A DNA stretch of 62,141 nucleotides, filler included, from Hausera hauseri (taxonomy: Eukaryota): assembly GCA_046269625.1 (NCBI GenBank). It is 12 parts of 12 records of this genome, joined end to end, with 100 filler letters (N's around TTAATTAATTAA, not from the genome) between each part and the next. Parts side by side here need not be neighbours in the genome. Positions count along the whole stretch, not along the records: positions 52,605 to 57,859 come from JBJURY010297834.1; 11 more parts are not named here. The stretch is one strand, 5' to 3'. Position numbers and translations under genes: made by a program. The notes under the pieces were generated by a model that ran no database searches, had not been told where the DNA came from, and saw only the letters and a list, made by a program, of their open reading frames with translations. Position 1 is the stretch's first letter. Each line of letters begins with the position of its first letter. Positions 4,128-61,684 of this stretch are shown here, piece after piece.

Positions 4128-4163
4128 CTGGAAAAAGTATAAATACCTTTCATTTTTACAAAA

Positions 4164-19186: not shown

Positions 19187-19199
19187 TCCCCCTCTTTTA

Positions 19200-23822: not shown

Positions 23823-23983
23823 AACAGATTTATTATAAAAGTTTTATAACATTTAACTCCTTCACTCGGGAATTGGGTCTTTTTTTCCTTCTTTTCTGAA
23901 TTTCCTGACTTTATGTTGGCTGTTTATTGAATTATCTTTGAATTACATTTAAACGTTAATATACGTTTCAATTCCTCCTCACA
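23753..23983 (-). repeat. 5' LTR, followed directly by PBS TGGCGACCAACG (23741-23752)
   Basis: TGTGAGGAG...TACTAACA|TGGCGACC. Confidence 0.92.
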
Positions 23984-30846: not shown

Positions 30847-31459
30847 ATTTTCATGGAATATCTGGGCATCATGTGAACCATTTGATACAGAATATGTGTA
30901 TATTTCACATTTTTCAATGTTNNNNNNNNNNNNNNNNNNNNNNNNNNNNNNNNNNNNNNNNNNNNTTAATTAATTAANNNNNNNNNNNNNNNNNNNNNNN
31001 NNNNNNNNNNNNNNNNNNNNNTCATACTTTTCCAAACATTATAAAAGCTGGCTGGGTTCATGAATTCTAGATCGTATCGAAACAATACTGATTAAGTGAA
31101 AAAATAAAATGGTATCTTACGAAACAAATCTAACACTCCCGTCCAACTTTAACAAATGCGATGCCACTGGGCACCATTTTACTCTTATCACGATTTGATA
31201 ATTATTTTGTATTGATTTTTTTTCGACAATTATTCAAATGCATCTTTTTTTTAATTCGTGCTTTAATTTCTAATTTGCATGTCAAATAGGCAGAGCCGAT
31301 GTCGGCTGTTAGATAAAAACCAGAAGTTTTTAAGTGACGGGTGTAGAGCCAGAGTTATCTCCAGTTGAACATAATCGAAGCCTGTAGTGGTTATCTTGCA
31401 GGAATATTATATGCTCGAGTCAGTAAAATAAAAAGAAACATATGACTAAAGTGCTCCAT

Positions 31460-38506: not shown

Positions 38507-39115
38507 TTATTCATGGAAAATACGATAATCAACACCATCCTTTGTTATAGCCCTAATACGAACAACACCACCACTGTGACCATCTCTACTTATTGCCAGG
38601 AAAACAGCCTTACGCACCATTTCTATACATTCTTCCTTATTCATATTTTCTCTGTATTCATTGTCCAAAAACCCATAAATGAAAGTACTACCCGATCCAC
38701 TGATTGCCACTGATTCTCGTTGCAACATTCCTCCAAGTGGAATTGAGTAAAGTTGACCACCTTTCACGTCATCATATCCACCTACAATTATCCCAGCAGA
38801 CAATCGATCTCTATATTCATAACAAAGATTTTTGAAAACAGTTGCAGCATGCAGAACAGTTGGTTCGGTATCAAATTGCATGGCATGCAAATTGAGGCGG
38901 TATTTTACTATGTCTGCCAATGCCTGAGTATCGGCTGCTGAACCTGATCGACAACAATAGATTGAATCTCGGAGTTTTGTCAATTTATCACTGACTCGAT
39001 TTGAAATATACGATCCTCCAGATGTTCTTGAATCGGCCCCAATTACTACACCACCATCGAATGCAATGGCAACTAATGTTGTTCCCATACTGATTGGTTC
39101 TGATGAGTTGTACAT
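38507..39115 (-). CDS. PSMB6: Proteasome subunit beta type-6 (beta1), 202 aa, intronless
   Basis: Propeptide ending MG|TTLVA (catalytic Thr1), GADSRTS, CRSGSAADTQ, SGSGSTFIYG, RDGHSGG; ATG at 39115. Confidence 0.93.
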   Translation of the reverse strand: MYNSSEPISMGTTLVAIAFDGGVVIGADSRTSGGSYISNRVSDKLTKLRDSIYCCRSGSAADTQALADIVKYRLNLHAMQFDTEPTVLHAATVFKNLCYEYRDRLSAGIIVGGYDDVKGGQLYSIPLGGMLQRESVAISGSGSTFIYGFLDNEYRENMNKEECIEMVRKAVFLAISRDGHSGGVVRIRAITKDGVDYRIFHE

Positions 39116-39979: not shown

Positions 39980-42880
39980 TTGACGAGCTCTGGTGTCCAA
40001 TATATAAGCTTTTTCTTCGGCCCTGCTCCTAGTTGAGCGAAAGGAGCAGTTAACTGACTGCAGTGTGGGACGTATTTATGGACAAAATGTAAAGTCCCAA
40101 GAAAACTGCGCATATCAGTAGTGGTTTTTGGTGTCTCTATGTTTCGTAGCTGATGGATTCTACCAGGCTCTGGACTGTGACCGTCAGGTGTGATGACGTG
40201 GCCAAGGAAATGTGCCTTTTTCTGAAAGAAGGAACATTTAGAAAAGTTCACTTGCAAATTGTGGTTGTGCAAGAGTTGGAAAACTAGTCTGAGATGTTCT
40301 TCGTGTTGTTTGGGTGATGCAGATGCGACTAGTATGTCATCAATGTTTGTATATAAAAATGGCAAGCCTGAAAGAACTGAGTCAATGTGCCGTTGGAAAG
40401 TTTGTGCTGCGTTCCTTAAACCAAACGGCATGAATGCGTATTCGAAAAGACTGTAAGGTGTTATAATGGCCGTTTTTGGTATATCTTCTGGTGCTACCGG
40501 TATTTGGTGGTAGGCTTTTTCGAGATCTATGGTTGAATAAATCGTAGTCTTGTATAACGAATGCAATATATCCTTAATCAACGGTAGAGGATAAGCATCC
40601 ATGGTAGTGATATTATTAAGTTGTCAATAGTCGCCGCATGGACGGAACGAGCCATCTTTCTTTGGGACGACGTGGAGTGGTGATGCCCATGGTGATTTAG
40701 AGCGTTTTATGATGCCGGCTTGCTCGAGTGCAGAGAATTCCGCTTGTACTGCCTGTCGACGGCGTGGTGAAAGTGGGCGGAGTTTCTGTTTAACGGGCCT
40801 AAAGTTTTCTGTGACGATGCGATGAATCGTCGTGTTAGCCGGTCGAAATTCTGGGTCTTTTTTATTGTGTGAAAACAAGACTTGACTAAGTATTGCTGCA
40901 TTTCTTGGCTAAGCATAGTAAAGGATGTTTTTGTCACGGCAATGGTTTGATTGGACTTAGCATGTGAAATGCTAGAGATTGAATCGTCTAAATCGTCCTT
41001 GTGAACGCTTTTTTGTTTCTCTGTTACTGAACTGTAACAAAATGTTTGATTATTTATATGGGTATTAATCGCGTCCTTATTTGCGTTAGTTGAAGGTTCT
41101 TTTAATATCGATTTTATAAGTGAAATAGGTTGCGTGACTTGTTGGTTATTTAAAGAGGTGGGTTTTGTTGGACTGCTCTTGATGATCTGACGTTGCCTAC
41201 AATCTACAAAGAGGTTGTAGAAAGATAGGAAATCAGATCCAAGTATTGGCGATTGTGTCGGCAACGATGAATGTCCAATTGAAAATGTCGGGGAATGATG
41301 GTTACGTGAATGAAACTTTGGATGTGCCAAAAATGTGTAAAGCTTGGCCGTTTGCCGTGTATAGTTTGATGTTAGACGGTGAGATGGATAGTGTTTTGAT
41401 GGATGGTGGTAATGAAGAAACAGTAGCTTCTGAGTCAATGCGAAAGTTGATTGGTTGATTTGAATTGGACGTTAAGGAGGCTTTTAATGTAAAAACAGCG
41501 TTTGTGCGGCTGTAGCAATTACGAGGGTAGCCTTTGCCAGCCTGCGCCGGAACATCTGGCGGCTTTATCAGTTTTTTGGATAGAAGGATTTGGTGACTCA
41601 GGAGAATTACGAATGGATTGGTTAAGTCGACTGGAAAACGTAAAACCGTCGACGCACTTCAGGGTTTTGTTGCCGAACCTATTATGGTAAATGCAAACGA
41701 TATCGGATTTTTGGAAGGCTTATGTATAGAATTTACACCCAAGGCAACATTTGCTGGATTGGTTTTTCAATTTATTGTGATAATAGCACATCATAGGTCG
41801 AGTAGGGGACCTAGCGAATCTAGAATTTTGTGATGAGGCACGGCTATGATTAGGTGTGAATCGATTTCGTCGCAGCATGGATAACTTGTCCAGTTTGGAA
41901 GTTAGAGCAGAAATGGCTTGGTGTATTGCAGTGTTTTCAGCTCGGCGAGTGTTTATTTGATTACTCAGCGCTAAGATTTCATCATTGTGTGGTGTTATAG
42001 GCGGTTGCAATGTGGCTTCGACGATAGGAGTATGATGTGTATTTAGTATATCGTAACTTTTATCAGCCAGTTGTGCTAACTTTTCTAACGTAGCGGTATC
42101 TTCAAATACTGTTAGTAAAGCGCGTATTTCCTTCGGTAGTGATTGAAGGAAATATCTGCGCAATAAATCGGCGTTATTGGTTTCATTTACTCCAAACTTG
42201 CTTAATTGAGTCAAGGATGTTTGTAAAAATTCAGATGGTTTTAATGTGCCTATTGTGTTTTCATTGAAATATTTCTGGATGATGTTACCAGATAAGGTTC
42301 GGTGAGTTTTAGTACGGCGTTGAAAAGTGTTTCGTATGGGTCTACTGTCTGAAAAATATCGGAAAGATTTGGTAGTAGTGACTTAAGGTTGGCTGGTAAA
42401 AGTATTAATAGGCTATTGGCTTTGAAGAAAGGATCACTGACCTTATTTGATTTTAACCACTGCGCATGGAATTCTAGCCATGTACGACTGGAGTGTTGTT
42501 TATTTGTAAAATAGTCGACACAAGTGAAATTGACCGAAGAGGATGCTGCAGGTGGGACTGAAGGAGACTACTTTAGCGTAACATGTATGGTGGGAATGTC
42601 AATAAAATCTTGTTGTTCCAGAGAAGATGCTTTTGAGTCAGATTTGCCTAGTAAACATTAATGTGCAGCTAGTATAGGCGTCAAAGATGAGCGTGTATAG
42701 TTGGTAATAATATCGGATTGCTGCACAAAGAATCCGTTAAAGCTGAGACGGAAATTAGTCTGTAATGCTTCTCGTTGTAGAGCCCCGAACAAATGTGCGA
42801 TGGTTGCTGTTTGGTGTATATAGTGTGTATGTGTGTTTATTTTTAAGTGAGAGTTAAAAAAGTGAAGTTTGCAAATATGT
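39980..42880 (-). mobile_element. Ty3/Gypsy (Mag-like) UBL-gag, protease and RT; degenerate; same family as 52640-57859
   Basis: SSRTWLEFHAQWLK, LLRRYFLQSLPKEIRALL, CYYHNK..C..GC, SPWASPLHVVPKKDGSFRPCGDY, MPFGLRNAAQTFQR, NIDDILVAS. Confidence 0.92.
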
Positions 42881-43284
42881 CGGGTGTGCAGATATGTTTA
42901 TTTTGTAATAGAAGAGAAATAAAGATGAAAGTGTGTGTCATTTTAGGGGTACAATGCGTCACCGGGGACAAGGTCGCACCAAAAGTCCCTATATCGTAAT
43001 GACTGATCTTTTTAACCAGAGGAATCGGAACGGCAGTCGAGCACGAGATCATTGGGTTTATTTGTTGTACATCACGTAACCGAATTGTTATTGACTGAAT
43101 AAAATAAGGTTGAGGTGGAATAAACCGTTTTTGAAATTTTGAAATTATCTTTATGGTTCCGATAGTCGATTTCGAAGTTTCGGGTTTGTTTATTCTAAAA
43201 TTCGATCGAAAATATTCAAAAACAGTTAGAAATTCAGCAATTTCAACATGGTGTAAATATTCACGGACATATATATATATTTAG

Positions 43285-43480
43285 CAAATGCTGAATATTT
43301 CGTCTGAAAATAGTTCCCTTAATGTATATATCTCCTTTTGATGGCAAACATTTTTCAGAAATAACATTTAATAGTGTTGATTTTCCACAACTATTCGGTC
43401 CAATAATAGCCGTAATGTTTAAATATTTAAAAATGGTCGATACATTACGTGGTACTGTTTTTCTCGGTGAATTGACTGTA
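43285..43480 (-). pseudogene. ABC transporter NBD fragment (Walker A)
   Basis: My translation: RNVSTIFKYLNITAIIGPNSCGKSTLLNVISEKCLPSKGDIYIKG. Confidence 0.8.
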
Positions 43481-44649
43481 AAATACTATTATACTGTCTC
43501 GACGACTCACCAATTTTATTGCCTGTCGATGAGTATTTTTCCAACGCCCTATAGGTATTTTCTGTCGCTTGCTCTTATTTTTTTAAGAAATTTGCGAATC
43601 ACATATTGTAGTTTGAAATCGGCGAAATTTCGAAGTAAAATCGGAATTATGTATATGCTGTGATGTGTTGATTAAATGGTATATTCAACCTTAACGTTAA
43701 ATGATATGGCTGAGTTTGTATTGACTCTGGTCACGATTAGCAAATACTTCACTAATGATTCATTGTTCTCAATAAACAGCGAGGTTTGGCCAATGTCAAA
43801 TATTGGGGAGGTACTTGAAATATGCATAAAATAATTTGCATTCTTGCCTAATCCGTATGTATAGGGATGGAGAATTTGCGATGTTAAAACGATGGATAAA
43901 TAGTACGGTAAGTTATTTGGGCTTATTCGAATTCGACAATGACCACTACGTATAATGAAATAGGATGTACGTGTATAACAAAATTCAAAAGTAGTGGCTG
44001 CCGAGAATGTATTAAAATTGTTAGAGTTTTTGATAAATTTGGGCACAACTTTTTATTTCCAATATATTTACTATATGCTACTGCAAAATATATAATAGTC
44101 TTACATAGTTCTCCTTTACTCAAAGCCACTTTTNNNNNNNNNNNNNNNNNNNNNNNNNNNNNNNNNNNNNNNNNNNNTTAATTAATTAANNNNNNNNNNN
44201 NNNNNNNNNNNNNNNNNNNNNNNNNNNNNNNNNTGTAAGAAATAAGTAAAATAGCTGTTGTAGTTTCGTAAAACAGTGCAGCTTGAGCTAGTTTAGTAAA
44301 TATGGTTTAGAACCAGTTTTTTAAAGAGAATAGTTTGTATCGGCCTTTAAAAAGGTACAGGCCGATGTTGGGTCCTCTGGAGTCAGTACTCCTTTACTTA
44401 TCATTCGTTTATGGAGGAAACATTCGAATTTCACATTTGTGACTTTTAGGTCAGACACAGTAATGATAAGAGAGAATGGAGTTGACTGTAAGGTTATGTC
44501 TAGTTCTTTGATGACTTTCTTTTATACTATTTGTGTGGTCACTATTCTTGTGACGACATGTATGATGCTGGTCTTATTAGGGTAGTTGTTGTTATTTCTT
44601 TTGGAAATCTTTCTATTATATCTGGTCCCTCTGATGCTTTTGACCATGT

Positions 44650-46440
44650 CCATTTGTAATTTGATTTCCATAGGTTCAATACCATATAGTATATTCTCTA
44701 TCGAAGGATATGGGGCAGCATAAATAAGGATTTTGATAATCTGGTTTACATTTTATCGTGTCAGTTTTATTAAATATCCGGTATTCTAAAATTCGATGTT
44801 TGAATTGAAATGTCAGGTTGCGCTGTTACACAAGGTCATTCTTTTTAACTTTTGTGTAGAACATAACAAGGAAATCTGGTTTATTGAAGTAATATATTGT
44901 ACCAGGAAACGAATAATATGATCTATGCCATTTTCCATTTGTCCTTTTCCCGACCGCATATTGAATTCTATACGATATGTCATATGAAAGTACACACAGA
45001 CATGAACAATGGTTGGCATATATATATCACAAAATTCTGGAGTGGCCACTTGTGATGTTCATACTTTCTATATATGTATGCAACATGATCTTGTCTCCAT
45101 GTTTGAAATTATGTGGCTTAGCTTTTTCGTCATATCAGTTTTTATATTCTTTCTGACAAATCTTTATGTTGTGCAGCTAAATCCCATACATATCCTAGAT
45201 TTTCTTTTAACAGCTCTCNNNNNNNNNNTCTCTATATTCCATAAATTTCAAATGTGAGATTTGTGTTTTAAAAACCAAATCAATTGACATGAGCGTCTCT
45301 GAGGTACATCAAATATAACGGAGCCTCTTGCATCAGGATGAACGGTATTTCTGATAACGTATAAACAAGGTTTGATATTCATCCTAATCATCTTGATGTT
45401 CATTGACCATCGTGGCTGGCATAGTGAGGATTCCATTGAATTTTTCTACTGTTCCGTAGATTTGCGGATGATACAGCGTTGTCTTTAAATGTAATATTCG
45501 GAATGCCTTTGAAATTTTCGCCATGACTTCTATAAAATTTAGAGCTTGGTCTGTTAGTAAATTGGATGGTGTTCCATAATTAAATGCAGTTTCTTCTACA
45601 AATGCGTGAGCAATAGTTTGGGCTTTCTAGACTGGTGTTGGGGTTACGACTGGTTGTCTGGAAAATAAGTCAACAAACACTAAGTTATACTTATTTCCTT
45701 TTAATGTCATAGTGTGCCTAGAATGTCCATTACTGAAAATTCCATTGGACATTCTAGTGATTTAAGAGGTACTTTGACTTTTGAGCCCACATTCTTCTTT
45801 ATGCACAAATGGGGCAACTTTTACACCATTCTTGCACCTATCTTGACATGTTGTACCAAAAATATTTTCTTTTCAGTATGCCCAATGTTCTTTTTACTCA
45901 TTGATGTCCTCCGAGCATACCATCATGGTATTTGGTCATTAGTAACTTTATGTCTTCTTGAGGGACAACTACAACTAATTTTCCCTTCTGGTTATTGTAC
46001 AGTACTTCATTCCTTGTTTCGCAGTTTTCAGCAAATTTCACCAGATGAGCATGAAGATTGGTATCATTTGGTACCGTTTTCTTTTGTACATATTATTTAA
46101 TTCCTTTTATTTGTCTATCATTTTGTTGTTTTCTAACAATGATTTTTCTTTTTCTGTAATACTCCAAACGCCTGGTTTATCCGCTGATTGTTGAAGGTCT
46201 GTATCTTCAGGAATTCTTGTTTTTCCAGTTTTGTATTCGAATTTCAAATTATAAGGCTGGAGGAGCATAGCCTATTTCATTAAACGGATGTTTGGATTTT
46301 TGTGCTTCTTCAACCACTGTAGTGGTTTCTGATCAGCGTATATGACAATTGGTTTTGTTTCTGACAAATACGGACCATATTGCTCCAGTGCATATACAAT
46401 TGCGAGTAATTCTCGTTCAATGGTAATAATTTCTTTCATA
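44650..46440 (-). pseudogene. Ty3/Gypsy pol remnant: RNase H and integrase; PR and RT absent
   Basis: TIERELLAIVYALEQYGPYL..YADQKPLQWL; GNKYNLVFVDLFSR; YGTPSNLLTDQALNF. Confidence 0.85.
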
Positions 46441-46519
46441 TTTTCTTAACTTAACCTACAAACTTTTACGTTTCTTCCTACGAGCAGTGATTAAACTCCA
46501 TATCTTTTTTGTATTCAGA

Positions 46520-49258
46520 GATGAATTTGAGTGATACTTGGTTTTTCTTATTTTCTGTATTGGATGCACATTTCCGTTATCATTAAAGTGGTCTTTATTA
46601 TATTTTTTTGTATCCATTCAGCGTCCTTCTTTATTAGGAAACAAGTGGCTAAGAACAGAATCAGAACGTGGATAATTTTCCATGTACATCCTACAGCCTG
46701 TTTTATGCCATAGCCTTTGGTTATCATAGTACGGATTGTTTTTACAAAGGCGAATATAACAGAATCCTAACCATCCGGAATTAAACTGGCCAAACAACAT
46801 GTACCATCCCCATGCGGTAGCGAATATGTCTAGCGATTCTTCTTGCGTATTCGGGTCCCATCAGGTTTTCCCAATTAGCTTTTCCATCGTGATCGGCTAG
46901 AACTCTTCCATTTCTGTTGACTTTCAGTCTTTGTTGAGGAAACATCATTCTTCTATGGTTTTCCATATCTTGTTCAGAATATACGCACATCTTTACTAAA
47001 TTCATGTCAGGCTTATACTGTTGTTCAGTCTTTAAATTGATTCAGCTAATTCTTCGAGGCGGGATAATCTGCTCCTCTTTAGGCATTCGAAATGCTGGCG
47101 ACTTCCTATACGTACAATTTTGGTATATGTATAGTTTTCCACAAGATCCAACAGTATTCGAATAATTGGTTGTAAAAATCGTGGCTTGGTATTATACCAA
47201 ACTGATAATTCCATGATGCATTCATTAATTGGTCTTATCTTGACAGTTACTCTAGTACACTCGAACGTTACAAGAGTTCCTTCCATTGTTCGTGAAAATT
47301 TTCCTTCTGCATCAGGTAATTCAGCTTGATCCTTTATTATCCCATCCGTTATTGTGGACATATATATCCTGTTTCTGATTATTTCTCTGTTCAGCTTGCA
47401 ATCATTTAATACTATTTCTCCATACATAACATAAATATTCTCTTGTTGAAAGTGATAAATGAAATGAATCTTGTCAAAATATAGATGCGGTTTCACTTCT
47501 GATTTATCAATTTTTCTTTTTACTTCTTTTATTTTGATTGCTGACAAAAATATTCCTTTATAATTTGTTCGATATACTACTTGTGCGCATCTGTTCGTAT
47601 CACATTCTATTTTGAATTTCATTCCTTCTCTGGGATTCGCTGAATATACAGTGTCGCTCAAATTAATTGCATAATGATAATTTTGGGATAAGTTGGTGGT
47701 ATCTGTATTAGTTTTACGTGGTTTTCATATTTTTAAACATTGAAAGCAAGGTAGTTGTGTAAAATAATTGAATAAGTTGTATAAATGAGAATCAAATAAT
47801 TTTATTTTATTCGGTTTCTGCGTACGTTCAAATTATTTGCATAATTTGTGGTTTTAATGTTTTCCACGCAATGGATACACTCATAGCTACACAATAGTTG
47901 ATTACTAAGAAGTTTCATGAATGACCCAAACAGTTATTGCGTAGGAGTTACATCAGATTCAAAGTAGTGTTTCGCGTATTATTTCACGCTACAAATTCCA
48001 TAGAATTGTTCGAGATCTGAGACCAGGAAAATGTGAATGAAAACGATTTCTCTCACCCTGAACAGACCGTCTGCAAGCACGTGCTTCTAAGAATAACCCC
48101 AAAGCTACTGCTGCAAATATACAAAAGGCAGTTGGTTGTCAAGCAAGTACAGTGAGCCTCCCCGCTATCAGACGCTCACTTCGTCGCTCAAATCGATTGG
48201 AATAAACAGATCTCAAATCACTAACTTAGGTTTCTCGAATTCGTGTTTGTCTCCAATGGTGCCTTGTGCATCGTTATGTCAGTAGAGGATTGGAAAAAAG
48301 TATGACGAATTTTTAGAATAATTTTTAAAGATTTTTAAAAGAATTATTTTTCTAAGCTTACAATTCACTATATGGAGGTTGTGTTCACTGATGAGAGTAC
48401 TGTAGATGTGAACCCTGCGCACTCTCAGTTTGTACGACGCGGTCAAATGAGTCATTAAGTCTCGTGCATACCTCGCAACATCGTCCATATGTTCCTAGAG
48501 TCATGTTCTGGGGTTGGACGCTCGATCGTATCTGATATTCGATCCTGTCTGCTTTTTGATATTTCCTCTATACATTCGTCTTTTTGTTTCATTGAATTTT
48601 CCATTTCTCAATAAGGCTAGTTGACATTGATCCTTGTCAACTTCATATGCCATTATCGATTTACCCGTATTACATTCTTCATTGTAGTAATCACACTCAG
48701 GGAATGTCACCATTTTTCCTGATGATAATTCAAAAAGAGCATCATACTCTCAGCTCAACTTGGTAGTCCTCAATGGTTACCATATCGAACATTTCAACAT
48801 TTATATTGTAAGATTCTCCTTTACAATAGCCTGTTTTATCAATTGTTCCGACTATGAAAATTCTCTTATTGGTAACTTCTTTTTTGAGCCTTTAACCGAA
48901 TGCTACCGATGTTAATTTGTTTTGTCACAAAAACTATGCACATCCATTTACTTATCGAAAGTGGCTGGAATGGGGTGGTTGGCTCTACTATGGCTGCGTT
49001 TCCGTACCAGTAACCGCAAATAAAGTGGAAGTGATTCTTTCGTACAAAAGATTCTTTCGCTTTAGTTTTTACAAATTCTGACTCTTGGTAAACAATATTC
49101 TTTTAGTTAATGATGTCGGATTAGCGTACGGGCATTTTTCTAAATCCAACAGAAAATATATCGGAACTTCTTTGACTTGACTAGTCATAAGCAATAATTG
49201 AAGATGATCTTGACATGAAATTAAATAACAGAAGTATGTGTAGAATTTTAATTACCAT
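46520..49258 (-). pseudogene. Complete-length degenerate chuvirus-like glycoprotein, interrupted by an insertion at ~47649-48500
   Basis: MVIKILHILLLF..IIAYD; CAQVVYRTNY; CIMELSVWY..FLQPIIRIL; VYSEQDM..MMFPQQR; WGWYMLFGQFNSGWLG; C-terminal hydrophobic segments. Confidence 0.85.
47649..48200 (+). mobile_element. Tc1 5' fragment (TIR plus HTH region) inserted at TA in the glycoprotein gene
   Basis: TA|CAGTGTCGCTCAAATTAATTGCAT; SSVSRIISRYK..KNNPKATAANI..IRRSLR; copy A is uninterrupted at the equivalent site (~14410). Confidence 0.75.
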
Positions 49259-49259
49259 A

Positions 49260-51720
49260 GGCAGATCAAGATCAGATTACTGATTATGCTGTCTTTCTTG
49301 CTAGGGGTGTAGGTTTTCTTTTTGCCTGAACAACAGGTGCATAATCTTGTACCGTTGTTTGAATGAAACTATTGATCCATCTCTGCACTTTACTTACCTT
49401 TCTACATTAGTTGTCAATGCTCTTGTGGCTATTCCTATACTTTTTCTATTTCCTTGGTTTGAGTTCGAACCATTCATCACCATTATTTTATACAGGAGAT
49501 ATGATGTAGCTGTTATAATTTTACTTCTAGACATGCCTGTTCCCATCATTCTAGATAGTACATCTCTCTTGTATCTCACTTATTTTCTCATCTATAGGAA
49601 TATCTGCAAATTGCTCACTGATTTTTATTTCATTTATGCTTATCTGCATCAGTGAGTCTGGTATTTGTAAGTTTGTATTAAACTCAACAAACGCATTGTG
49701 CATTCTAGTTAACAAAGTTTGCAGTAATGTTGGCAATGAAACATTACCTTCATCATTCTCATCTTGAGTTATTAATAATCTTCGAACAACTTCATCGTCT
49801 CTTGCTTTTCTGCCTTTTAGTTGCTAGAGTTTTGTTATGCCTTTGGGTCTACCTCGATTTTTTCTATCAATTTGAGTCTGTTCTGATATAGGAATATTTG
49901 TTTCAATTCCTGTCTGCTGAACTTCATAATTTGGTTAAGTTTCTTATATCTTTCTGCCTAAATTCAGTAAGGGTTTCATCATTTATTTTTTGCCTAATTT
50001 GTCTGAAGGCAATTGCAAACAGGATCATATCTGGTTTCCCGCATACGTACTTCGCATATGGTTTCGTAACATAAGTGTCCGTTTATAAAAACGTAGTTCT
50101 AGCTCTCCTCGAGACTGGATTACCTCGTTAATCTTGTTTTTCAATGTAATTATCGTATATGACGACTTCATCCTTATAGCACGAAGGTCCTGATTGTGCA
50201 GTTTGAGAGTAACTACTATTTGAGGCTTTTTCCGACCGGTCTAACTCTTTCTGCATACCGATAAATTATATATCGTACAGGGTTTTGATGTGGACTTATC
50301 AGCAGCATATATTAGGAATAAGTTTAATAAATTAACACTGTTGATAGCTAACCGCAGGCAACAATAACATCGAAATAACCTGTCTGAATTGTTTGTCATC
50401 AATTAATTCTTGGTTAGCATAGCTTGATATTTTCCGAACTATTTCTGTACTGTTTTGATCCAAATCCACAAATAAGGTTTCTCCCTATTGTGCTGCTATT
50501 TTGACTTTCTTGTTTCTTATTCACTTTATCTTTTCACTGTTTATTTTTCATGCTTCCTTTACTTCCAGAAGGCAAATAGGGAATTTTTAAATGTTCTCTT
50601 ATAAAAGGTTTATCTTTTCTTTTGGCCTTTTGCACTTCAGCATCTGATTCTGAGGATAGATCCTTTCAAGTCTGACTACGGGAACAATAATTGAATTATT
50701 GTTATTCATTTTGTGTCGTTTTTCACAAATTTCTTGTTGCTTTAATTCTAACTATAGCACCTTTAATTCACCTACTTTATCTTCATCATCTATCATATTC
50801 GTTTTATAATCCTTCAATTTAGCTCTAACCTTTTGCTGCAGCTTTTCTACAGTATCCTCTGGTTCGGTATCCGGTTTCCTGTTCATTATCTGTAACAGAT
50901 ATATTACCAATCATCTCAATATTTTTCTTTTTCATGTTTGGCTGCCCTTCGTTAGGACAAGAACGGGCCATGTGTCCATATTTCTGACAGGCAAAATATA
51001 ATTTTTGTCCATTCTGATTAACCATTGGTTTCCTCATTGCTAGTTTTTGAGGCTGACTTTGAAAAGTAACCATCTAAGGGTGTCCTGGCCGGTTCTGAAA
51101 TTTTTTCAATTTCTCATCATTTTAGGAGGCCTTTGAACATTTTCAAGCCTTCCATACTTAACTTCAATCTTTCTGACTTTACTGACAGCTTCTTTATAAG
51201 TGTCAGGGTCAACAACACTAATATAATTCTGAATTTCTTTTGTTATTCCGTACAAGAACTGGTCTTAGAGAGCATCTTCTCTTATGTCTTCATCTGTATC
51301 GGCTGTAAGCCCATTTCTGAAGGACACATGCATATTCTTGCACGGTATCGCCTTTTCGCTGACGTCTGTTGAATTTCCCAATTCAACCTTTTCCTGACGG
51401 ATCTACTATGAGTTTTTCCTCCATGAGCTCTAAGGCTATCCCAATCAGCTTTATTCTGATCCTCTACTTTTGCGTAAGAACTGAGTGCTATCTTTGAGAT
51501 GAAGTGGAAGGCGTTTTATCCTGAGCTCGTCTGTCCATCCAAAGCTTTCTGAGTACATGTGGTACTGCATCAGGAATTTGCTGTAGTCCTGGTCTGGTTT
51601 GCCTTTCAATTTGTTCATCGACAAAACAATTGTGCATTCCTACCTAAGCTAGCACTTAATCCTAAACTAGACATCTGGGGTTTTTCTTATTCAGACCCGG
51701 ATGGTCTTCTAGCCGAGTCC
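49260..51720 (-). pseudogene. Copy B of gag-linker-UBL-AT-hook-helical region
   Basis: Collinear with 15200-17700; FACQKYGHMARSC; RKNRGRPKG. Confidence 0.8.
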
Positions 51721-51788
51721 GAATTTTCTGTTATATTATTAGCGTGTATATTACGTTTGTTTTACAAATTTGCAACGCCAGCGTGTCT

Positions 51789-51805
51789 CCTCACTCGGGG
51801 CAACA
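51789..51805 (-). promoter_or_regulatory. Primer-binding site (copy B)
   Basis: TGTTGCCCCGAGTGAGG at the position equivalent to 17806-17822. Confidence 0.6.
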
Positions 51806-52639
51806 GTATTAAGTTTAAAAATCTGACAGTCTGGGTCTCGGCCTTAAATTTAAAATTTACTTTATCTAATTAACAACCTGTGGGTTACTAAATGTTTTGA
51901 TCTTATTGTGTGAGTTGATCACTAGAAGGCACACTAGCGATACTCTCCTCTTATTTATCTTGATTTTAAACACTCGAACCTTAATGGACGGGATACCAAA
52001 GTCTGCCCTTAATTTTAGATATATGGTTTAATTCTACTCAAAAACAATTTAGTTTAACAAAAATATTATGATAACAGCTCGCTAACAGGATAAATAAATA
52101 AACAAATGAATGAATGAACAGATGATACTCAAAATTGTCACTTATTTCTGACAAATATTGTTTGAAAATCGTAATTAGTAAACTATACTCGAACCTAAAT
52201 TCCCAATTCGATTATTATACCATAATACATATATCAGGTGATATTCCGGATTTCAATCTCCTTCAAAATAATATTTGCAAAGGTGGCAGGTTGTACTCCG
52301 AGATTCAATATGCTAAATTAGCTGTGTTTCCTGTTACCAAATATATGTAAAGAAAATAAGACAAGGTCAAACTTTTAATCTATGGTAAAAATGATTTATA
52401 TAATCTTATCATTGGAAAATATAGAATAATCAATTACATCCATTATGCATTGTTTGTCAAGCATTAAACAAAATTAAGTATACTGTTGTTTTTAGTTACA
52501 TTCANNNNNNNNNNNNNNNNNNNNNNNNNNNNNNNNNNNNNNNNNNNNTTAATTAATTAANNNNNNNNNNNNNNNNNNNNNNNNNNNNNNNNNNNNNNNN
52601 NNNNATGAGCTAGCCTTGGACTGGTACTTTGCGTTATAG

Positions 52640-53779
52640 ATGCATATGGGATTGTCTACGGCATATCGTCATCGTAGAATCGACAGCCTAAAACACATTT
52701 CCTTGCATCTCTGCAAAATTTGTTATGATAAAAGCACATTATTTTATCATCTCTAGATTTAGAACGAGAAGAGTGCCTAAAAACCTGCGATTACGAGAAA
52801 TACGATTTTCGCTTCCTCTAGGCACGGATAAGTCACGGAGTTGGGCTGTGATCGCAGAAATTGCTTGTTGGTGGGTATCAAATTGTTTCTGCATTATGTT
52901 TAGTTGTTGTGCAAAAAAGTGTTGTCTGGCAGTGTGTAAGCAGTTTGCTGCGACTACTGGCTGCGAGTTATTAGACTGCAGAATATCAAAGATTTGTCTG
53001 CCAATAAGGCGACCTTTTCGAGAGCAGTAGAGTCATCTACTACAGTAAGCAAAGCTCGAATAGAGGTTGGCAAAGATGAAAGGAAATACCGATGAAGAAG
53101 ATCGACACTGTTTGTGGCAGTAACGTCCAAAGAGCTCAATTGAGAGATGGCAGTTTTAAGGAAATCCGATGATTTTTTTATTTCCGATGGCGTGTTCGTT
53201 AAAATATTTCTGGATTATGCTGTCGATGGAAGGGTCGGTGATATGTAGAACCGATTCATACAGCATATCATACAGGCTTGAAGAAGAGAATGTCAGCCAG
53301 ATTACTGATTTGCTGTTTGATGTTGGCTTGGAGTAATAGCAGCAAACTGTTAGCCCGCAGAAAGGGATCTGTAATATGATTAACTTTAAGCCATTGTAAA
53401 TGGAACTGTAGCCAGGTACGACTAGAATTCGTCTTGTCTAGAAAAAAATCCGTGCAGGGGAGATTTGGAGAAGTTGTTGGTGTGGTGTCGACAGGACGAC
53501 GACCAGATTTAGTCTTTGTTAAGTGTTCGATAGAAGGATCAAGGTCTGATCCACCACGGATGCGAAAATGGACAGTGAGAGTGATGGAATATTTCTCGGG
53601 TGCAAAAGATGAAAAAGAATCGTAAGGTTGCAAAGTTAGACCGTTGTGCATAAGATAAAAATTGGAGGAGCCAAAAAAAGGACCATTCAGTATAGAGAAT
53701 ATGAGCTGTTTGTTTGTGCGCAACCCTTAATGTGTGGATATGTTTAGTATTAGTAAAGATTAGAAAAGAAAAGGGACAT
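52640..53779 (-). pseudogene. Gag with an N-terminal ubiquitin-like domain ending RIRGG (53550); frameshifted
   Basis: FLIFTNTKHIHTLRVAHKQT..NFYLMHNGLTLQPYDSFSSF..TLTVHFRIRGG|SD; SSRTWLQFHLQWLK; CFYHNKFC..KCVLGC. Confidence 0.8.
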
Positions 53780-54305
53780 GGCCCAACGGGGGCGGGCACT
53801 CTCGGTCCCTCAACGAGAGAATCTTTTGTATGAGTGATCATCGTCGTAGGACGACCAGTACTTCGATACATTGTTAGCGGTAACAACTTCAAACATTCAA
53901 CTTTTTTACTGGATGCGAATCGTACTTTTGGTTTCAAAATGGTGGGTCGCAAATTGAATTCACCAATTGATACAGTTGTCATATTTTTGTTTAAATATGA
54001 ACGGTGGATTAACAGGCAGCTATTTTTGATGTGTAACATATTAATCCAACCGTTGCTGTAGCCACTGGCCATGAAACAGGATTTTGAAAGATGGACAGGT
54101 GAAAAACCGATGCGATGTGAACGTATAGATTAAGATGGCAGTCGGCTTCAAAAGATCAAAAGTCAATTTCGCGAAATTCAATTTTGCCAGATGATAGTAC
54201 AATTAAAACTGGTTTGTCAAAATCTGAAACATAAACGTCGGGCAACCAGTTTAAAAAAGTAATTGAGAAAGACAGACTAATTACGCAGATTAGTCTGTCT
54301 TCGTC

Positions 54306-56204
54306 TCATAATCCTATAGTGCAGTCGTCTGTAGTTGCAGAAATAAATCGTAATAATCCAAATAAGGCGTAGGATTTGAAAGTATCCGTTTTATGTATAC
54401 GATTATTCAAATATGTTTGAAATAATTCGTTAATGTAATTAACTCTCAGATATGACTTACCATTACTGTTTAATATTGTACTCGCTCTGAAGTTTCTTGA
54501 CCCTATCATCCATTCCAACCAAAATGTTGACTGATACGGACGAGTAACGTTGTATGTGATCGGTTTTAGAGAACACGACTTTTCAGTATTAATTGATTCT
54601 TTTAAGTGATTTAAGTTTGATTGAAGATGTTTGAAAAGAGACGTAAGACAATCTGTAATATTTCGAAACGACAATAAGTCTTTAGGCCTTATGTTTGGTT
54701 TCAGTGGTTTGCAAAACTTGACTGTTTCTACGTCCTTTTCGGTTAATAAATTAAGTAGTATGCAGAACATTAAATCCGAAACAGGAAATTGTCTAACCGA
54801 TAAAATTTGTTTAGTACATTTAAAAAATGAATCAAAAACGCTCAATTCATTTGTGCAATTCAATCCATCATTGCTTATTATGTTTTTAATGTCACTGTGA
54901 TCACAATAATTGTAATAAATAATGTAATCTATAACTGCTGTTCCAAATGTATAAAGTCCGGGAATATCGAGTGCTGAATAAGTCCTTACACCATTTAGAT
55001 CGTTTATGTAAGCAGTATCAACGCCAAACTGTTTGTAATGATCTTTAATATGAAAGTCCAATGCAAAAAAGATGATATTCCTAATGAACATTTGTTGATT
55101 TTTAGATTTACCAGGATTGATAGCAATTATGTTACCTCTGAGAACGTTTATAGCTTTATTAGCATGATTATTTAAAATTGGTAAAACATAGTATGGTGGT
55201 TGAACATCACCGATTTCATTATTGGTTATAGTTTTATTTTCATTTAATATTCCATTGTGCTGCGCTACAATGACATCAGATAAAAACTTTTTGGTATATG
55301 TTTTATATTCTTCACACATTATACTAAAACTCTCTTTGATAGCAATTCTGTCTTTGGATTTTAAACAACTAGAAAAATTATAATTATTGAGATTTTGATG
55401 AATAATTATTTCACAATATATCACATTTACCTCTTCTTTATCGTTATTTGAATCCAAATCATGAAACAAATCACTGCTTTCAAACGCCAATCCCGTACAA
55501 AAATTAGCTGAATTAACACCGTTTTGAATTTCTCGAATAAGACATTGAAAAAAGTTATTGAACGTTTCATAGCTTTCCATATCGATTGCATACACACTTG
55601 TCATTTCGGGGTGTGTTACGTGCGGATATACAATGGTCATTAGAATGATATTATTTCGTGTCTTTTTATTTTCGTACAGTATTGCTATTTCATGGTTTAA
55701 TGCTTTCTTCAATGGACAGTAATACTCATACACATTGTATATGAATTGCTCACAATTAACTGCATCGCCTACTGCAACGTCCTCCGCCAATTTAACAATA
55801 TCATAATGCCCATTATCCATTTTCTGAAGAATTCTCAATGGTTTGGTAAAGGCAAATTTTTCAATGACAAAATTGTAGATGTCGCTAAGAGTTTTGCTAC
55901 GAGAATAGCAACAAGTTACTTTGTTTTCTTTTCCACAAATAGAAATAGTAATGTTCAATGGTTGAACCTCAACGGTGTAACTATCGTGACTGAGTATCAC
56001 AAATCTTTCGAAAAGTTCTTGGTTATCACAATCCAGTTTGTATGTTTTCACAAGATATTTCCAAACTTCTTCCGGTACCAAATCGTAGTGATCATTCAAC
56101 AACATATCACCATTAACTTCTTTTGTTGCATCAAGCAATTTGCTGTTACTAATTGGTGGCAAATTTTTTCTTGTCATCCGTAACAAATATTTAAGTTGAT
56201 TCAA
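54306..56204 (-). CDS. Chimeric 632-codon ORF (first ATG 56177): USP4/11/15 DUSP-UBL, phosphagen kinase, CLU, BACK and probable further fragments
   Basis: PPISNSKLL..YDLVPEEVWKYLVKTY..VEVQPL; PLKKALNHEI..VYAIDMESYETF; GNIIAINP..QMFIRNIIFF..NDLNGVRTY..GLYTFGTAVIDY; NIISNDGLNCTNELSVFDS. Confidence 0.75.
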   Translation of the reverse strand: MNQLKYLLRMTRKNLPPISNSKLLDATKEVNGDMLLNDHYDLVPEEVWKYLVKTYKLDCDNQELFERFVILSHDSYTVEVQPLNITISICGKENKVTCCYSRSKTLSDIYNFVIEKFAFTKPLRILQKMDNGHYDIVKLAEDVAVGDAVNCEQFIYNVYEYYCPLKKALNHEIAILYENKKTRNNIILMTIVYPHVTHPEMTSVYAIDMESYETFNNFFQCLIREIQNGVNSANFCTGLAFESSDLFHDLDSNNDKEEVNVIYCEIIIHQNLNNYNFSSCLKSKDRIAIKESFSIMCEEYKTYTKKFLSDVIVAQHNGILNENKTITNNEIGDVQPPYYVLPILNNHANKAINVLRGNIIAINPGKSKNQQMFIRNIIFFALDFHIKDHYKQFGVDTAYINDLNGVRTYSALDIPGLYTFGTAVIDYIIYYNYCDHSDIKNIISNDGLNCTNELSVFDSFFKCTKQILSVRQFPVSDLMFCILLNLLTEKDVETVKFCKPLKPNIRPKDLLSFRNITDCLTSLFKHLQSNLNHLKESINTEKSCSLKPITYNVTRPYQSTFWLEWMIGSRNFRASTILNSNGKSYLRVNYINELFQTYLNNRIHKTDTFKSYALFGLLRFISATTDDCTIGL

Positions 56205-56683
56205 CCGAAATTACACCAACACTATTTCTTCATTTGATGATTCATTTGTTAATATTCTGACACCAATTTATGATTCCGTAACGTAGACAAAATGCATTTA
56301 AGAAAAGAAAATCCGAAACACCAAGAAAACTGTATTAATCAAATTCAATTTTTTTGTTATTAAAAATCTATATTCATCAATTACATATTTTCTAATTTAT
56401 GTGTATAATACAAACCAAACCTTATGAATTGTAACCTTTCATTGTAACCTTACAATCAAACAAGCATCAATCACACACAAAAAAATCATCTAATTCAATA
56501 AGAAAAAGAACGAATAAGAAAACACCCGAAAACTAAAATTGGCAACTATTGAATGTCCGTTACTGGTTCAAAAATTACAACGCAATTTCGTCACTATCAT
56601 CTTGCTTGAGATTGAAATAATTTTTTGGGATAGTGAAGATTTGATTGTTATCATATTGTTCATTATCTCCCTTTGGAAGAGGG

Positions 56684-56776
56684 AATATTGGAGAAATGAG
56701 AAATGACGTAATCCATTCTTCACCCTTTAAAGGATGGAAATATTGGAGAAATGTGAAATGACGTAATTCATTCTTC
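56684..56776. repeat. 38-bp direct repeat, each unit with CRE-like TGACGTAA
   Basis: 56684-56721 and 56739-56776, two mismatches. Confidence 0.8.
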
Positions 56777-57089
56777 TATTAATTTGCCATCAAAATTGTT
56801 GGGTATTTTGGAAATTGTAAAACACATTATGAAATGTAATATCAAAATAACCGCAATCTTCAGATAATAGTTCTCATCAAGATACTTTACACTGTACGTC
56901 GAATCGAGTTCAAACAGTAATTTGTTATTTTAAAATGTTCACGAAAATAAACCGAATTTGTTTTTTGTACTTGTCATTAAAGCACGTAGTGCAACGTAAC
57001 AAATTATTTTGAAGAATACAAAATCCAATATAAATGATCCAATAGAGATCTTTAGATTTAACGTTCCATCTGATTTATTTAAACATTAA

Positions 57090-57159
57090 AATTTGAATTT
57101 CTCGACTCCGGCGAGGAAAAGACCGCGCCCACGGCCGCGGCACCACATCACCTCCCCCC
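57090..57159 (-). promoter_or_regulatory. Polypurine tract (57148-57159) and start of LTR (TG at 57147)
   Basis: GGGGGGAGGTGA|TGTGGTGCCGCGGCCG just downstream of the integrase end. Confidence 0.8.
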
Positions 57160-57317
57160 GTGGCAGAATTGAAACTATGTAATAAAGAAAAATGAAGATA
57201 ATACGACTTACAACAACGAATCGCAACAGGAAATAAAGCTTGGTTTCTATTCAGTCTTAGTACGGGTTAGGCGTTGTGTGCCATCAAAGAAGTTTTCTTT
57301 GCTGTACGTGTTAAACG

Positions 57318-57859
57318 TTACTCTGCGTGGCTTACTTGATAGATTTGTAATGGGTTGTTGAACGATTTTTGTGATGGAGATGATAACGAATGTGGGTCAA
57401 GCGAGAAAGGAGATGAAGGTTGTGAGCATGATGACGGAGAGTGAAGTGAGATGGATGGAGGACATGATGATAATTGAGTGTAATCGAGCAGTGATTGCTT
57501 CAGTGGCGTAAAATCGTTTAGAAAGTCAGTTGAATTGCTAGCTGAGTCTGAATTAAGTGTAGAATTGCTATCTGGAATGTCGTCAATGAAGAAGGAAGGC
57601 TTCAGATTCGAAATATGGACGTTGCACGGTTTATCTTGGCGTAAGATTGTTGCTGTGTGAGATGAAAGATTCAACAGTTTGTACGGGCCAACATATTGAG
57701 GTCTAAAACCAGAAGGTGATTGATCTTTTAACCATACAAACTTGGCGGAGTATAAATCCTTCGGAATGTAGGATTTGTTGTGATTAAAGAGGCGGCAGAA
57801 TGAATCTGAGCTGACCTCGACGAAGTGAGATTGTGCCGCACGAATGTTTTCGTCTGCAG
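57318..57859 (-). pseudogene. Ty3/Gypsy integrase C-terminus (GPY/F module plus Ser/Pro tail)
   Basis: SYIPKDLYSAKFVWLK..RPQYVGPYKLL..NVHISNLKPSF. Confidence 0.85.
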
Positions 57860-58625: not shown

Positions 58626-61529
58626 TTAATAAAAGTTACCTCTAATTAATCTCTCAGCGTCAATTACTGAAAACAGCCAATATTTTAATTTTTTCAAAAA
58701 TAGTTTTAAAGGAAGCTCTGACAAACCACTAGGAAGCGTGTTGAATAGCCTCGGGGCAATGAAACTGTAAGTAAGGGAGATAGTGGTCCGAGAGGGCCGA
58801 GGAACAAAATAAGACATACCGCTTCTCAAATTGCTGGCGTAATCAGTTATTGATTGACGTTTTTGGTCACCACTACGTATAAAGAACATCCTTAGCACTT
58901 TATACACATATAAGTGTCTTAAAGGTAGTACATTGAGATCTTTAAAGATTGCAAAGGAAGGAGATGTCCTGGGTCTTTTATTAATAATTCTGACGAAGTG
59001 CTTTTGTAATAGGATTAAGTTTTTCATGTGACTTATATACGTACCCCCCCAAAACTCAATCCCATATTCCAACCTAGATTGAATCAAAGATGTGAATACA
59101 TTTTTAAGGATCAACCTAGGGCATAGGTCACGCAAGAAATAAAATTTCCTGATATATGACTGTAAACAATTATTTAATTCCCTGCAATGATCCTCCCAAC
59201 TAAGATTTTCATCCACATTTAAACCAAGATATTTTATTCTGGAGGAATAGGCTACCCCTGGACAGTCACAATTGGCCTCCAGATTCCGACATTTACAAGT
59301 CATTTGATGGCATGGAATAATATTGTAGTTATTTACTGTATTTATTCTGCTTAGATGGAAAATAATATACTTAGTTTTATTGAAGTTAATTAAGAGTTTA
59401 TTTTGGGCACACCATTCATTGATAATCACTAAATCACTAGAAATGCCCGACAGCACCCCTTCCACACAGGTACTCGAGTATGAGAGAGCAACATCATCGG
59501 CATAAGCTGTTATTTTTCCCTCGGTTTTTAAAGTAAAAATATCATTAATGAAAATACAGAAAAGAATCGCCGCCAGTACACTTCCCTGAGGTACGCCATA
59601 TCTAACAATACCAAAGCCGCTCAAATCTCCCTCCACACTCACACATTGTCTTCTTCCCGACAAGAAGGAAGTAAACCAGTTCAAGGGCATGCCCCTCACC
59701 CCAGCGTGGTACAGTTTATCCAATAAGATATCAATGTCCACCATGTCAAAGGCTGCCTTCAGATCCACAAATACACCCCCAGTCTTATGGCCTTCATTTA
59801 TGTCAGAATACACGCTGGAGAAAAAGGAGTTAAGAGCATCAATAGTACTCTTGCCACTCATAAACCCAAACTGTTTAACATTGAAAAAGTTGTTACTGTC
59901 CAAGTATGATATCAGGCGCTTTTTCATGATCTTTTCTATAATTTTCGAAAAAACTGATAAGAGAGAAATTGGTCTGTAATTTTCACATTTACGACGGTCA
60001 CCCTTCTTATATATAGGAATCACCTTTGCTACCTTCCATCCCTCAGGAAAATCTCCAGATTCAAAACTTAAATTTATTATAAACTTAAGAGGGGATACTA
60101 TATACAAAAAGGTCCTTTTCAGAAAATCAGAACTGACCCGATCAAGACCAGGTGATTTTTTGCTTTCAAGGGAATTGATAATAGTTATAATTTCATTTTC
60201 GTTAGTAGGAGTAAGATAAAAAGAGTTTGATGGGGCCTCCAAGCGATTTATATAATTTATATTTAATATATTAAGTTTATTGGAATCAGCAACGGAGAGA
60301 AAATGTTTATTAAATATTTCAGCCTGTTCTAAAGGGTTAGTTATAATTTTATTATCATCTTGCAGCTCCAGATTACCTCTATCTTTAATTTCGCCTATTA
60401 AATTTTTGATAACAGACCAATGCTTAGATGTATTTTTACTTTTAAAGTTGAATAAATTATTATAGTAAGCATATTTAGCGGTTTTTAATTCTGTATTTAA
60501 TTTGTTTCTATATCTAATGAAATGATTTTTTATATCAATATTATTTGGATGTTTTATCAGTAATTTGTATAAAAATTTTCTTTTTTCAATTTTATTATAT
60601 AAGTAGTCATTCATCCACGGCTGTATTTTTTTATTTTTATATTTGTCTGTTTTCCTGATTAGTTCTGTACAGAGACGTACGTACTTTCCAAGTCTGTCAG
60701 AAAAAAGTTGGGCCGCTGTAGAAGCGTTCCCACATAGTAATACATCAGTCCATTCCTCAGCCTCCAACAGGGGGCATAATCTATCGTAATTAATCATACT
60801 TATTGAAAAAGGTTTGTCAGCTGAGAGGGGAGTGCCAGGAACCATCTCCGTATTCACCATCACCTCCAATAAGGCGTGATCAGTAATACCGATCTGTCTA
60901 ACATTCATAGATATATCGAAAGTATAGTTTCTAGATTTTTTGAATCTAACAAAAATGTGATCAATGCATGACGACCCAAAACCATCCCCTCTTGTAGCTA
61001 TGTTAATATCATTCATCAAAGACAATCCATTCGCATACATCATATTCATGTAATTTTCAATTACATCACTATTCCCTGCTAGGTCCAGGTTCATGTCCCC
61101 GGCCATCAGGAGATTATCCACGCGAATATCATCCAAAATGCTATTCAATTCATCAATAAATACAATTGGGGCAACCCTGTGCAACCGATACACCAACAAA
61201 ATATGAATTTTAATTGATTTAAAGACACACGTTACTACAAGACAGTCAGCAGACGTCATTGAAGGCGTGTGTGTTAAAATATCAACATTTTTCTTTGCAA
61301 AAACAGCAACCCCACCCGACCTGTAACTATTATTGCATTTAAAGAAGCCGTTATAACCTGACAATTGATACAACAGTCTCTCACTATCATTGATCCAGAT
61401 TTCTGTTAAAAGTAACAGATCCGGTAAGCCACTGTAAGTGGTAGTCAAAGTAGCTATGAAATTATCAAAATTAGCCCTGAGGCTACGAATGTTTTGCATG
61501 ACACAAACTATCCGCCGGTTTTCACACAT
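58626..61529 (-). CDS. LINE ORF2: APE endonuclease plus reverse transcriptase, 967 aa, intact
   Basis: QNIRSL, TEIW, GDMNLD, IDHIF, TDH; KSPGLD, NYRPISLL, DLKAAFD, GVPQGS, YADD, KYLG. Confidence 0.96.
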   Translation of the reverse strand: MCENRRIVCVMQNIRSLRANFDNFIATLTTTYSGLPDLLLLTEIWINDSERLLYQLSGYNGFFKCNNSYRSGGVAVFAKKNVDILTHTPSMTSADCLVVTCVFKSIKIHILLVYRLHRVAPIVFIDELNSILDDIRVDNLLMAGDMNLDLAGNSDVIENYMNMMYANGLSLMNDINIATRGDGFGSSCIDHIFVRFKKSRNYTFDISMNVRQIGITDHALLEVMVNTEMVPGTPLSADKPFSISMINYDRLCPLLEAEEWTDVLLCGNASTAAQLFSDRLGKYVRLCTELIRKTDKYKNKKIQPWMNDYLYNKIEKRKFLYKLLIKHPNNIDIKNHFIRYRNKLNTELKTAKYAYYNNLFNFKSKNTSKHWSVIKNLIGEIKDRGNLELQDDNKIITNPLEQAEIFNKHFLSVADSNKLNILNINYINRLEAPSNSFYLTPTNENEIITIINSLESKKSPGLDRVSSDFLKRTFLYIVSPLKFIINLSFESGDFPEGWKVAKVIPIYKKGDRRKCENYRPISLLSVFSKIIEKIMKKRLISYLDSNNFFNVKQFGFMSGKSTIDALNSFFSSVYSDINEGHKTGGVFVDLKAAFDMVDIDILLDKLYHAGVRGMPLNWFTSFLSGRRQCVSVEGDLSGFGIVRYGVPQGSVLAAILFCIFINDIFTLKTEGKITAYADDVALSYSSTCVEGVLSGISSDLVIINEWCAQNKLLINFNKTKYIIFHLSRINTVNNYNIIPCHQMTCKCRNLEANCDCPGVAYSSRIKYLGLNVDENLSWEDHCRELNNCLQSYIRKFYFLRDLCPRLILKNVFTSLIQSRLEYGIEFWGGTYISHMKNLILLQKHFVRIINKRPRTSPSFAIFKDLNVLPLRHLYVYKVLRMFFIRSGDQKRQSITDYASNLRSGMSYFVPRPSRTTISLTYSFIAPRLFNTLPSGLSELPLKLFLKKLKYWLFSVIDAERLIRGNFY

Positions 61530-61684
61530 TTGAGAGCAAAGTAAGATATATTTTTCTCTTAATTTCTTTTATCAATATATAAATAAGAGTGAAGATAAAT
61601 AAAAGTTCTACTATAACGATATAGTTCCATAGTTCCCTAGTATATGTTAAAGTAAAAACAAAACTGACCCATCCTCCGAAATCC

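Follow-up and report, generated by a model that had tools for sequence, protein, structure and literature searches.

LTR retrotransposons are known to capture host mRNAs, and old captures normally decay. In the LTR-mediated retroposition described for metazoans (Tan et al. 2016, PMC5131818), partial mRNA pieces from several parental genes are joined in sense orientation and flanked by LTR-element sequence, and one mouse retrocopy joins four genes and an Alu; in the part of this account cited here, the pieces take the place of part of the internal ORFs, and most older copies acquire loss-of-function changes (14/21). The maize element Bs1 is likewise an LTR element, in which three host genes contribute pieces to a hybrid ORF, reported as transcribed and translated (PMC13317346, PMC5131818); one of the pieces is out of its native frame, the ORF has been read as a new host gene, and the sections of these accounts relevant to the ORF mention no ubiquitin-like spacer. 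The planarian Gypsy element Burro (PMC6431247) has host-like domains, including a Ubi2/SUMO-like one, within a long polyprotein in which an N-terminal CCHC-knuckle Gag is followed by the extra domains and env, and the extra ORFs of plant elements are reviewed in PMC7264820. The CsRn1 clade is defined by a CX2HX9CX3C (CHCC) Gag motif, and its description, in the sections cited, has no long leader (PMC2582038). Finally, a ubiquitin or ubiquitin-like unit lets host hydrolases release a downstream protein with a proper N-terminus in cytopathic pestiviruses, where captured ubiquitin is a processing signal (PMC8310069), and in SDE2, whose N-terminal ubiquitin-like domain is cleaved off by USP5 (PMC13572447); the former are RNA-virus recombinants and the latter is a host gene.

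The locus described here resembles the metazoan retrocopies in its partial, sense-oriented pieces of several genes next to LTR-element sequence, but the pieces lie between a polypurine tract and gag, with the integrase end and gag retained, and although they are old they stand in one open frame, which is kept while the protein drifts. Unlike in Bs1, all recognised pieces are in their native frame and lie upstream of gag, and unlike in Burro, a CHCC Gag stands behind truncated mRNA pieces. Literature searches on a ubiquitin spacer before Gag, a mosaic–spacer–Gag leader or planarian gene-fragment capture found nothing with this layout, most subscription journals and Repbase reports being outside their coverage. 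We lean, with modest confidence, towards the reading that the mosaic is a patchwork of host genes, acquired through template switching to spliced mRNAs and kept open as an N-terminal leader that continues through a predicted ubiquitin-like spacer into Gag.

The window, i.e. the whole stretch of DNA that was analysed, comprises 62,141 nucleotides from the Hausera hauseri assembly GCA_046269625.1 and is made of 12 short contigs with 11 linkers of 100 letters; the mosaic lies in contig 52605–57859 (JBJURY010297834.1). A preliminary description had reported an open frame of 632 codons stitched from at least four unrelated genes. The frame is indeed there, on the minus strand, which that description had left unstated, measuring 634 codons from stop to stop with zero internal stops in 632, and the remaining five frames over the same stretch hold 33–73 stops apiece; the chance of 632 open codons by composition is ~7e-24. 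The four donors are borne out by Pfam together with pairwise alignments. In the Pfam search of the translated frame (P0001), DUSP (residues 1–56, E 6.8e-7), ATP-gua_PtransN (residues 165–223, E 5.2e-8) and CLU (residues 349–427, E 3.6e-12, covering 40–122 of the 225 profile positions) were significant, while BACK (residues 435–493, profile 41–99 of 103) fell slightly below its cut-off (E 6.1e-4, 20.3 bits against 20.9) and gave E 2.6e-4 and 21.4 bits with a shorter query. A PDB search of P0001 returned arginine kinases and USP11. The ABCG-like (~545–575) and WD40 (~615 on) pieces, already called weaker when they were proposed, were not confirmed, with no match in the Pfam, PDB and relative searches.

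Table 1. Features of the mosaic-bearing element and of the second Gypsy element in the window (positions along the window; residues of P0001)
Feature	Position	Strand	Basis
Presumed C-terminal tail of Gypsy integrase (upstream pol end)	57318..57859	minus	Open frame with GPY motif; no Pfam match
Polypurine-tract-like run	57152..57159	minus	Sole G5+AG run on the contig's minus strand; after the integrase tail
Mosaic ORF P0001, 632 codons, first ATG at 56177	54306..56204	minus	Same sense as gag and integrase
USP DUSP-UBL fragment, residues 14–158	55731..56165	minus	Pfam DUSP, PDB USP11, alignment; collinear with apparently spliced P0002
Phosphagen kinase fragment, domain 1 of a two-domain kinase, residues 163–299	55308..55718	minus	Pfam, PDB, 36% identity to P0005 55–191
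Second fragment of that kinase (domain 2 start), residues 298–319	55248..55313	minus	12/22 identical to P0005 406–427, pairwise E 2e-4
CLUH CLU-domain fragment, residues 349–427	54924..55160	minus	Pfam, 70% identity to P0004, alignment with 80 homologues
BACK-domain fragment, residues 435–493	54726..54902	minus	Pfam, slightly below cut-off
Open stretch with no assigned donor, residues 494–632	54309..54725	minus	Holds the ABCG-like and WD40-like pieces proposed earlier; no database match
Mosaic frame carried on 49 codons beyond the stop	54159..54305	minus	Translation of the frame
Open frame into the ubiquitin-like segment	53773..54129	minus	Part of ORF 53539–54129; no PDB or Pfam match
Predicted ubiquitin-like spacer, 74 residues ending RIRGG	53550..53772	minus	Read with X at the frame break near 53685
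CsRn1-type gag	52674..53549	minus	CX2HX9CX3C at its end; tblastn against gag of the element in contig 39980–44133
Second element: ABC-transporter P-loop fragment in decayed leader upstream of gag	43300..43446	minus	Pfam ABC_tran E 1.5e-8, PDB
Second element: segment aligning to the spacer, just upstream of gag	42643..42867	minus	35% identity, gapped two-sequence alignment; ends LLGK

The mosaic consists of at least five pieces from at least four donors, all in sense orientation and native frame. The USP fragment is 52% identical to P0002 (over residues 14–148) and 55% to P0003, and the identity of the CLU fragment to P0004 spans residues 351–430; relative to 80 homologues the latter has a 4-residue gap that preserves the frame, and its top named CLUH match is from Spirometra among the matches listed. 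Between the two kinase fragments the sequence jumps in frame over ~215 donor residues. Most fragments are cut mid-domain, and the DUSP-UBL fragment is a nearly whole module. No full-length relative of P0001 was found among 7998 scored candidates of 347–1106 residues, no relative of its C-terminal part among 1238 longer candidates, and no two mosaic donor families in one protein among 18 Pfam-checked hits, taken from the 150 listed of 162 in the representatives. The viral and metagenome contigs searched held no locus related to the mosaic.

The frame count agrees with the earlier statement that the recognised pieces are in their native frame without a stop. The worry expressed with it, that only in-frame pieces can be recognised, does not apply to openness: 440 residues of P0001 are assigned to donors and 192 are not, and these 192 donor-less codons are stop-free too, against 10–22 stops predicted from the off-frame rates of the ORF itself. 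At least five joints within the mosaic are in frame. Skips of 159 and 66 bases at joints within the ORF, both multiples of three, are not counted as evidence.

The mosaic stretch is present in two sequencing runs, X1 and X2, with no RNA run among those listed for it, a result without bearing on its expression. Each of the two runs carries a near-identical form and a ~9% divergent form; the near-identical pieces in X2 are at low depth and are not counted as conservation in a second species. The ~9% divergent copy has net indels of −18 and −3, both of which keep the frame. The USP–kinase joint is bridged by X2 record 13, the kinase–kinase joint by X1 records 2 and 3, and the pre-CLU joint by X2 records 11 and 12; no contig bridges the CLU–BACK joint among the matches listed. 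Over 55242–56269 the X1 contigs differ from the window at 0–2 letters per 240–550. X1 record 5 is 13 letters longer than the window within 55730–56269, which would break the frame if the extra letters fell inside the ORF.

Drift was tested on the USP and CLU pieces only, at sites where P0002 equals P0003 (USP) and where P0004 equals the majority of 79 other homologues (CLU). The mosaic differs at 30 of 128 sites conserved in the donor relatives. Changes private to the mosaic outnumber those private to P0003 (20 versus 7, p=0.012) and to P0004 (10 versus 3, p=0.046) and do not exceed those private to P0002 (20 versus 16, p=0.31); since relatives stand in for the donor genes of the host itself, some of the divergence may have arisen between species. 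The 30 mosaic-private changes have a mean BLOSUM62 score of −0.70 with 57% negative, compared to +0.93 and 21% negative for 42 private changes of the orthologue rows, 16 of them from the majority row (p=3e-4); under a neutral single-base model the values are −0.2 to −0.3 and 44–46% negative. At the observed divergence 6.5–10.6 stops would be expected in 632 codons, with a probability of none at all of 1e-3 to 2e-5; at a conservative ~10% excess divergence the expectation is 3–5 stops and the probability 0.008–0.05. Radical changes of the neutral type, together with the absence of the expected stops, support the view that in the USP and CLU pieces the open frame has been selected and the donor functions have not. 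The mosaic would thus offer a rare and clear example in which translatability is selected and protein function is not. The open-frame selection proposed in the preliminary description is therefore supported, while its other suggestion, a translated decoy protein, is weakened, since the mosaic-private changes are radical and match the neutral expectation.

Such a decoy, or dominant-negative protein, would use its host-like domains to disturb ubiquitin or silencing pathways, and the near-complete DUSP-UBL module would suit it, as would the host-like ubiquitin and apoptosis domains borne by Burro elements (PMC6431247). We consider it very improbable: donor functions that are not conserved argue against a decoy, conserved residues have been changed radically, most pieces are truncated mid-domain, as the partial CLU and BACK profiles show, the donors are unrelated to each other, and the sister element described below has a different donor. 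The same data bear on whether the mosaic is a young chimeric retrocopy under no selection, open for lack of time, or else an assembly chimera. Young LTR-mediated retrocopies are often in frame (14/17 in Drosophila at <1% divergence; PMC5131818), our comparison was with relatives and not with host donor DNA, and the window is composed of short contigs. Nevertheless, the radical private changes and the ~9% divergent copy, whose indels preserve the frame, show age, the mosaic has in-frame joints at five places or more and 192 open donor-less codons, and the X1 and X2 contigs bridge three of the joints, which speaks against an assembly chimera; we give this explanation little credence.

Along the minus strand of the contig, the order is the integrase tail, the polypurine-like run at 57159, ~950 AT-rich bases, the mosaic, open stretches, and gag. 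The first of these open frames we take to be a Gypsy integrase tail by resemblance. An LTR start (TG...) is likely at about 57146, after the polypurine-like run. Since the integrase comes before gag, the contig would hold either a tandem pair or a collapsed assembly of LTRs. The contig of 5.3 kb has no internal direct repeats, and there is no tRNA-Trp primer site (≤3 mismatches) between the mosaic and gag, with seven scattered weak matches elsewhere in the contig. With no convincing primer site or LTR end, the mosaic would lie either inside a long LTR or in a leader after the primer site. On the minus strand at 56255–56265, ~90 bases before the first ATG of the mosaic ORF, there is an 11-base stretch that, to our eye, resembles a tRNA-Leu primer site; a genuine site would place the mosaic in the internal leader and not in the LTR. 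An imperfect palindrome of ~45 bases (54264–54308) lies directly after the mosaic ORF stop. The CX2HX9CX3C motif occurs in the gag of both Gypsy elements of the window (contigs 52605–57859 and 39980–44133), which they share with the CsRn1 clade, although no tRNA-Trp site was found before this gag and the descriptions of the clade, as far as they are cited here, are without a long leader (PMC2582038). Judged by these motifs, the element is a CsRn1-like Gypsy with the mosaic between its polypurine tract and gag.

What the preliminary description overlooked is the continuation of the frame, interrupted by few lesions, into a ubiquitin-like segment and Gag. Between the RIRGG end of the predicted spacer and the first Gag match at 53492 there are 19 codons, and RGG-ended motifs of this type number three over the six frames of the whole window. 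Pfam gives no match to the spacer at E up to 5, and its sole PDB match at E up to 10 is SDE2, which is weak (E 0.065) and ends at the same GG. For the open frame that leads into it, the Atlas beta-propeller scores of 0.86–0.88 are below 0.9 and are a lead only. In the window copy, 3–4 lesions separate the mosaic from Gag, and an unbroken mosaic–spacer–Gag frame was seen neither there nor in the listed X1 and X2 contigs; we infer the fusion of the three from the layout of the frames. At the terminal stop of the ORF at 54306, all X1 depth (99.6 of 99.6, six contigs) differs from the window. X1 record 1 has no net frame change over 54082–54289, so the frame change either lies further on or the copy is broken, and, among the indels listed for X1, the one close to the spacer break is not enough by itself to connect the two frames. 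A programmed frameshift at the spacer was considered and set aside; the two elements would need opposite shifts, and plain lesions are likelier.

The second Gypsy element (contig 39980–44133) has a reverse transcriptase (Pfam RVT_1) and a gag 55% identical to that of the mosaic-bearing element. Its order matches that of the mosaic-bearing element, with the ABC fragment as the host piece, a 145-codon open stretch, the spacer-aligning segment and gag. The spacer-aligning segment has one internal stop and no Pfam or PDB match. The frame of the ABC fragment has 6 stops in 256 codons, and the leader has decayed together with gag.

These observations on both elements bear on whether the mosaic is instead a separate ORF of the element RNA, unfused to Gag and kept open for avoidance of nonsense-mediated decay or for ribosome retention. 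Open-frame selection with free amino-acid drift fits this equally well, and the window copy does have stops and frame changes between mosaic and Gag. On the other hand, it leaves unexplained the RGG-ended segment before Gag and the open frames into it, in two elements; the first stop is absent from the X1 copies; and Gag translation should be lowered by a closed ORF ahead of gag, a likelier effect than RNA protection. We regard the separate ORF as unlikely, though it keeps some weight beside a leader fused to Gag.

The contrast between mosaic and gag raises the further question of whether the host has adopted the locus as a new chimeric gene, preserving the mosaic while gag decays, for which maize Bs1 is a precedent (PMC13317346). 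The window copy has no lesions in the 1.9 kb of the mosaic and ~8 in the next 1.65 kb, and the earlier report of a frameshifted gag holds to the extent that gag carries at least three frame changes (its tblastn matches lie in frames −3, −2, −1 and −3). X1 depth, which is not a copy number, is 56–200 in the mosaic, 4–10 thousand in gag and 18–22 thousand at the integrase end (57533–57859), which places the mosaic in a small subfamily within a large family. However, from 54845 into gag all X1 depth differs from the window at many of the sites listed (40 of 633 rows), and contig 52605–57859 may be a composite of a younger and an older copy; the contrast implied by the earlier report is therefore weak and no proof of host adoption. 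Adoption is further opposed by the neutral look of the amino-acid changes, by the X1 match pattern, which points to a composite contig, and by the related element, whose leader decays along with its gag. Altogether we find a host gene quite improbable.

For the leader–spacer–Gag model, which we prefer, the following course can be proposed from the sequence. The reverse transcriptase would switch several times to co-packaged mRNAs, so that spliced pieces enter the element in its 5′ part. Collinearity of the USP piece with P0002 extends across the position of a 15-residue insert in P0003 and across a place of divergence in P0003, P0074 and P0107, as expected from intron removal, the introns being deduced from protein gene calls and not from donor DNA. 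Translation would begin upstream of the captured pieces, and every capture or mutation introducing a stop or a frame shift would abolish Gag and leave the copy without offspring. In the AT-rich mosaic sequence, 60-codon off-frame pieces have a stop-free probability of 0.0006–0.04 (0.06–4%), so that it is native-frame pieces that would survive. Host deubiquitinases would then cut after Gly-Gly and free a normal Gag, a cleavage that is predicted here by analogy with the pestivirus insertions (PMC8310069) and SDE2 (PMC13572447). With the leader removed, its amino-acid sequence would be nearly irrelevant, and the leader could grow ratchet-like.

If this model is true, the pattern is explained, and a retrotransposon uses host deubiquitinases to process its Gag; it would also provide a route for long in-frame multi-domain chimeras to arise and persist before functional selection. 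A wider version, which we offer tentatively and hold to be possible rather than probable, is that unrelated LTR-retrotransposon lineages, of which the CsRn1-type Gypsy here is one, place a cleavable ubiquitin-like spacer before Gag. Their 5′ end would then be a translated scrapyard of native-frame host mRNA pieces under read-through selection alone, an exon-shuffling machine, and possibly camouflage as host mRNA against piRNA silencing.

Other elements and genes were also seen in the window. Two decayed elements on the minus strand (13874–17951 and 44234–52504) are ~69% alike and have gag-like sequence; one has a weak ubiquitin match (15808–16224, E 0.013), and at 47032–47724 a mononegavirus-type fusion glycoprotein (E 6e-12) lies ahead of reverse transcriptase/integrase-like sequence. 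The order of the two recalls planarian Burro as far as that is described in the sections cited, but both are much shorter (PMC6431247). This arrangement of gag and glycoprotein, the Spirometra match of the CLUH piece and the two-domain kinase donor make a flatworm the likely host lineage of the AT-rich sequence, though the proteasome gene described below gave no confirmation. A decayed Gypsy on the minus strand (18052–26641) has LTR-like repeats at 18956–19186 and 23753–23983 (88% alike), a 162-base tandem repeat in gag and, upstream, ~2.6 kb of coding-like sequence without assignment. Matches to DNA polymerase B2 and endonuclease VII at 2753–4083 (plus), 5309–5875 (minus) and 28400–28831 (minus) suggest Polinton-like elements, and contigs 4128–8873 and 26742–30921 are 66% alike over 1.65 kb. 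An intact LINE ORF of 980 codons with endonuclease and reverse transcriptase occupies 58626–61568 on the minus strand. Finally, an intact intronless proteasome beta-1/beta-6 gene of 202 amino acids lies at 38507–39115 on the minus strand, with full-length identity of at most 65% among the 120 relatives listed.
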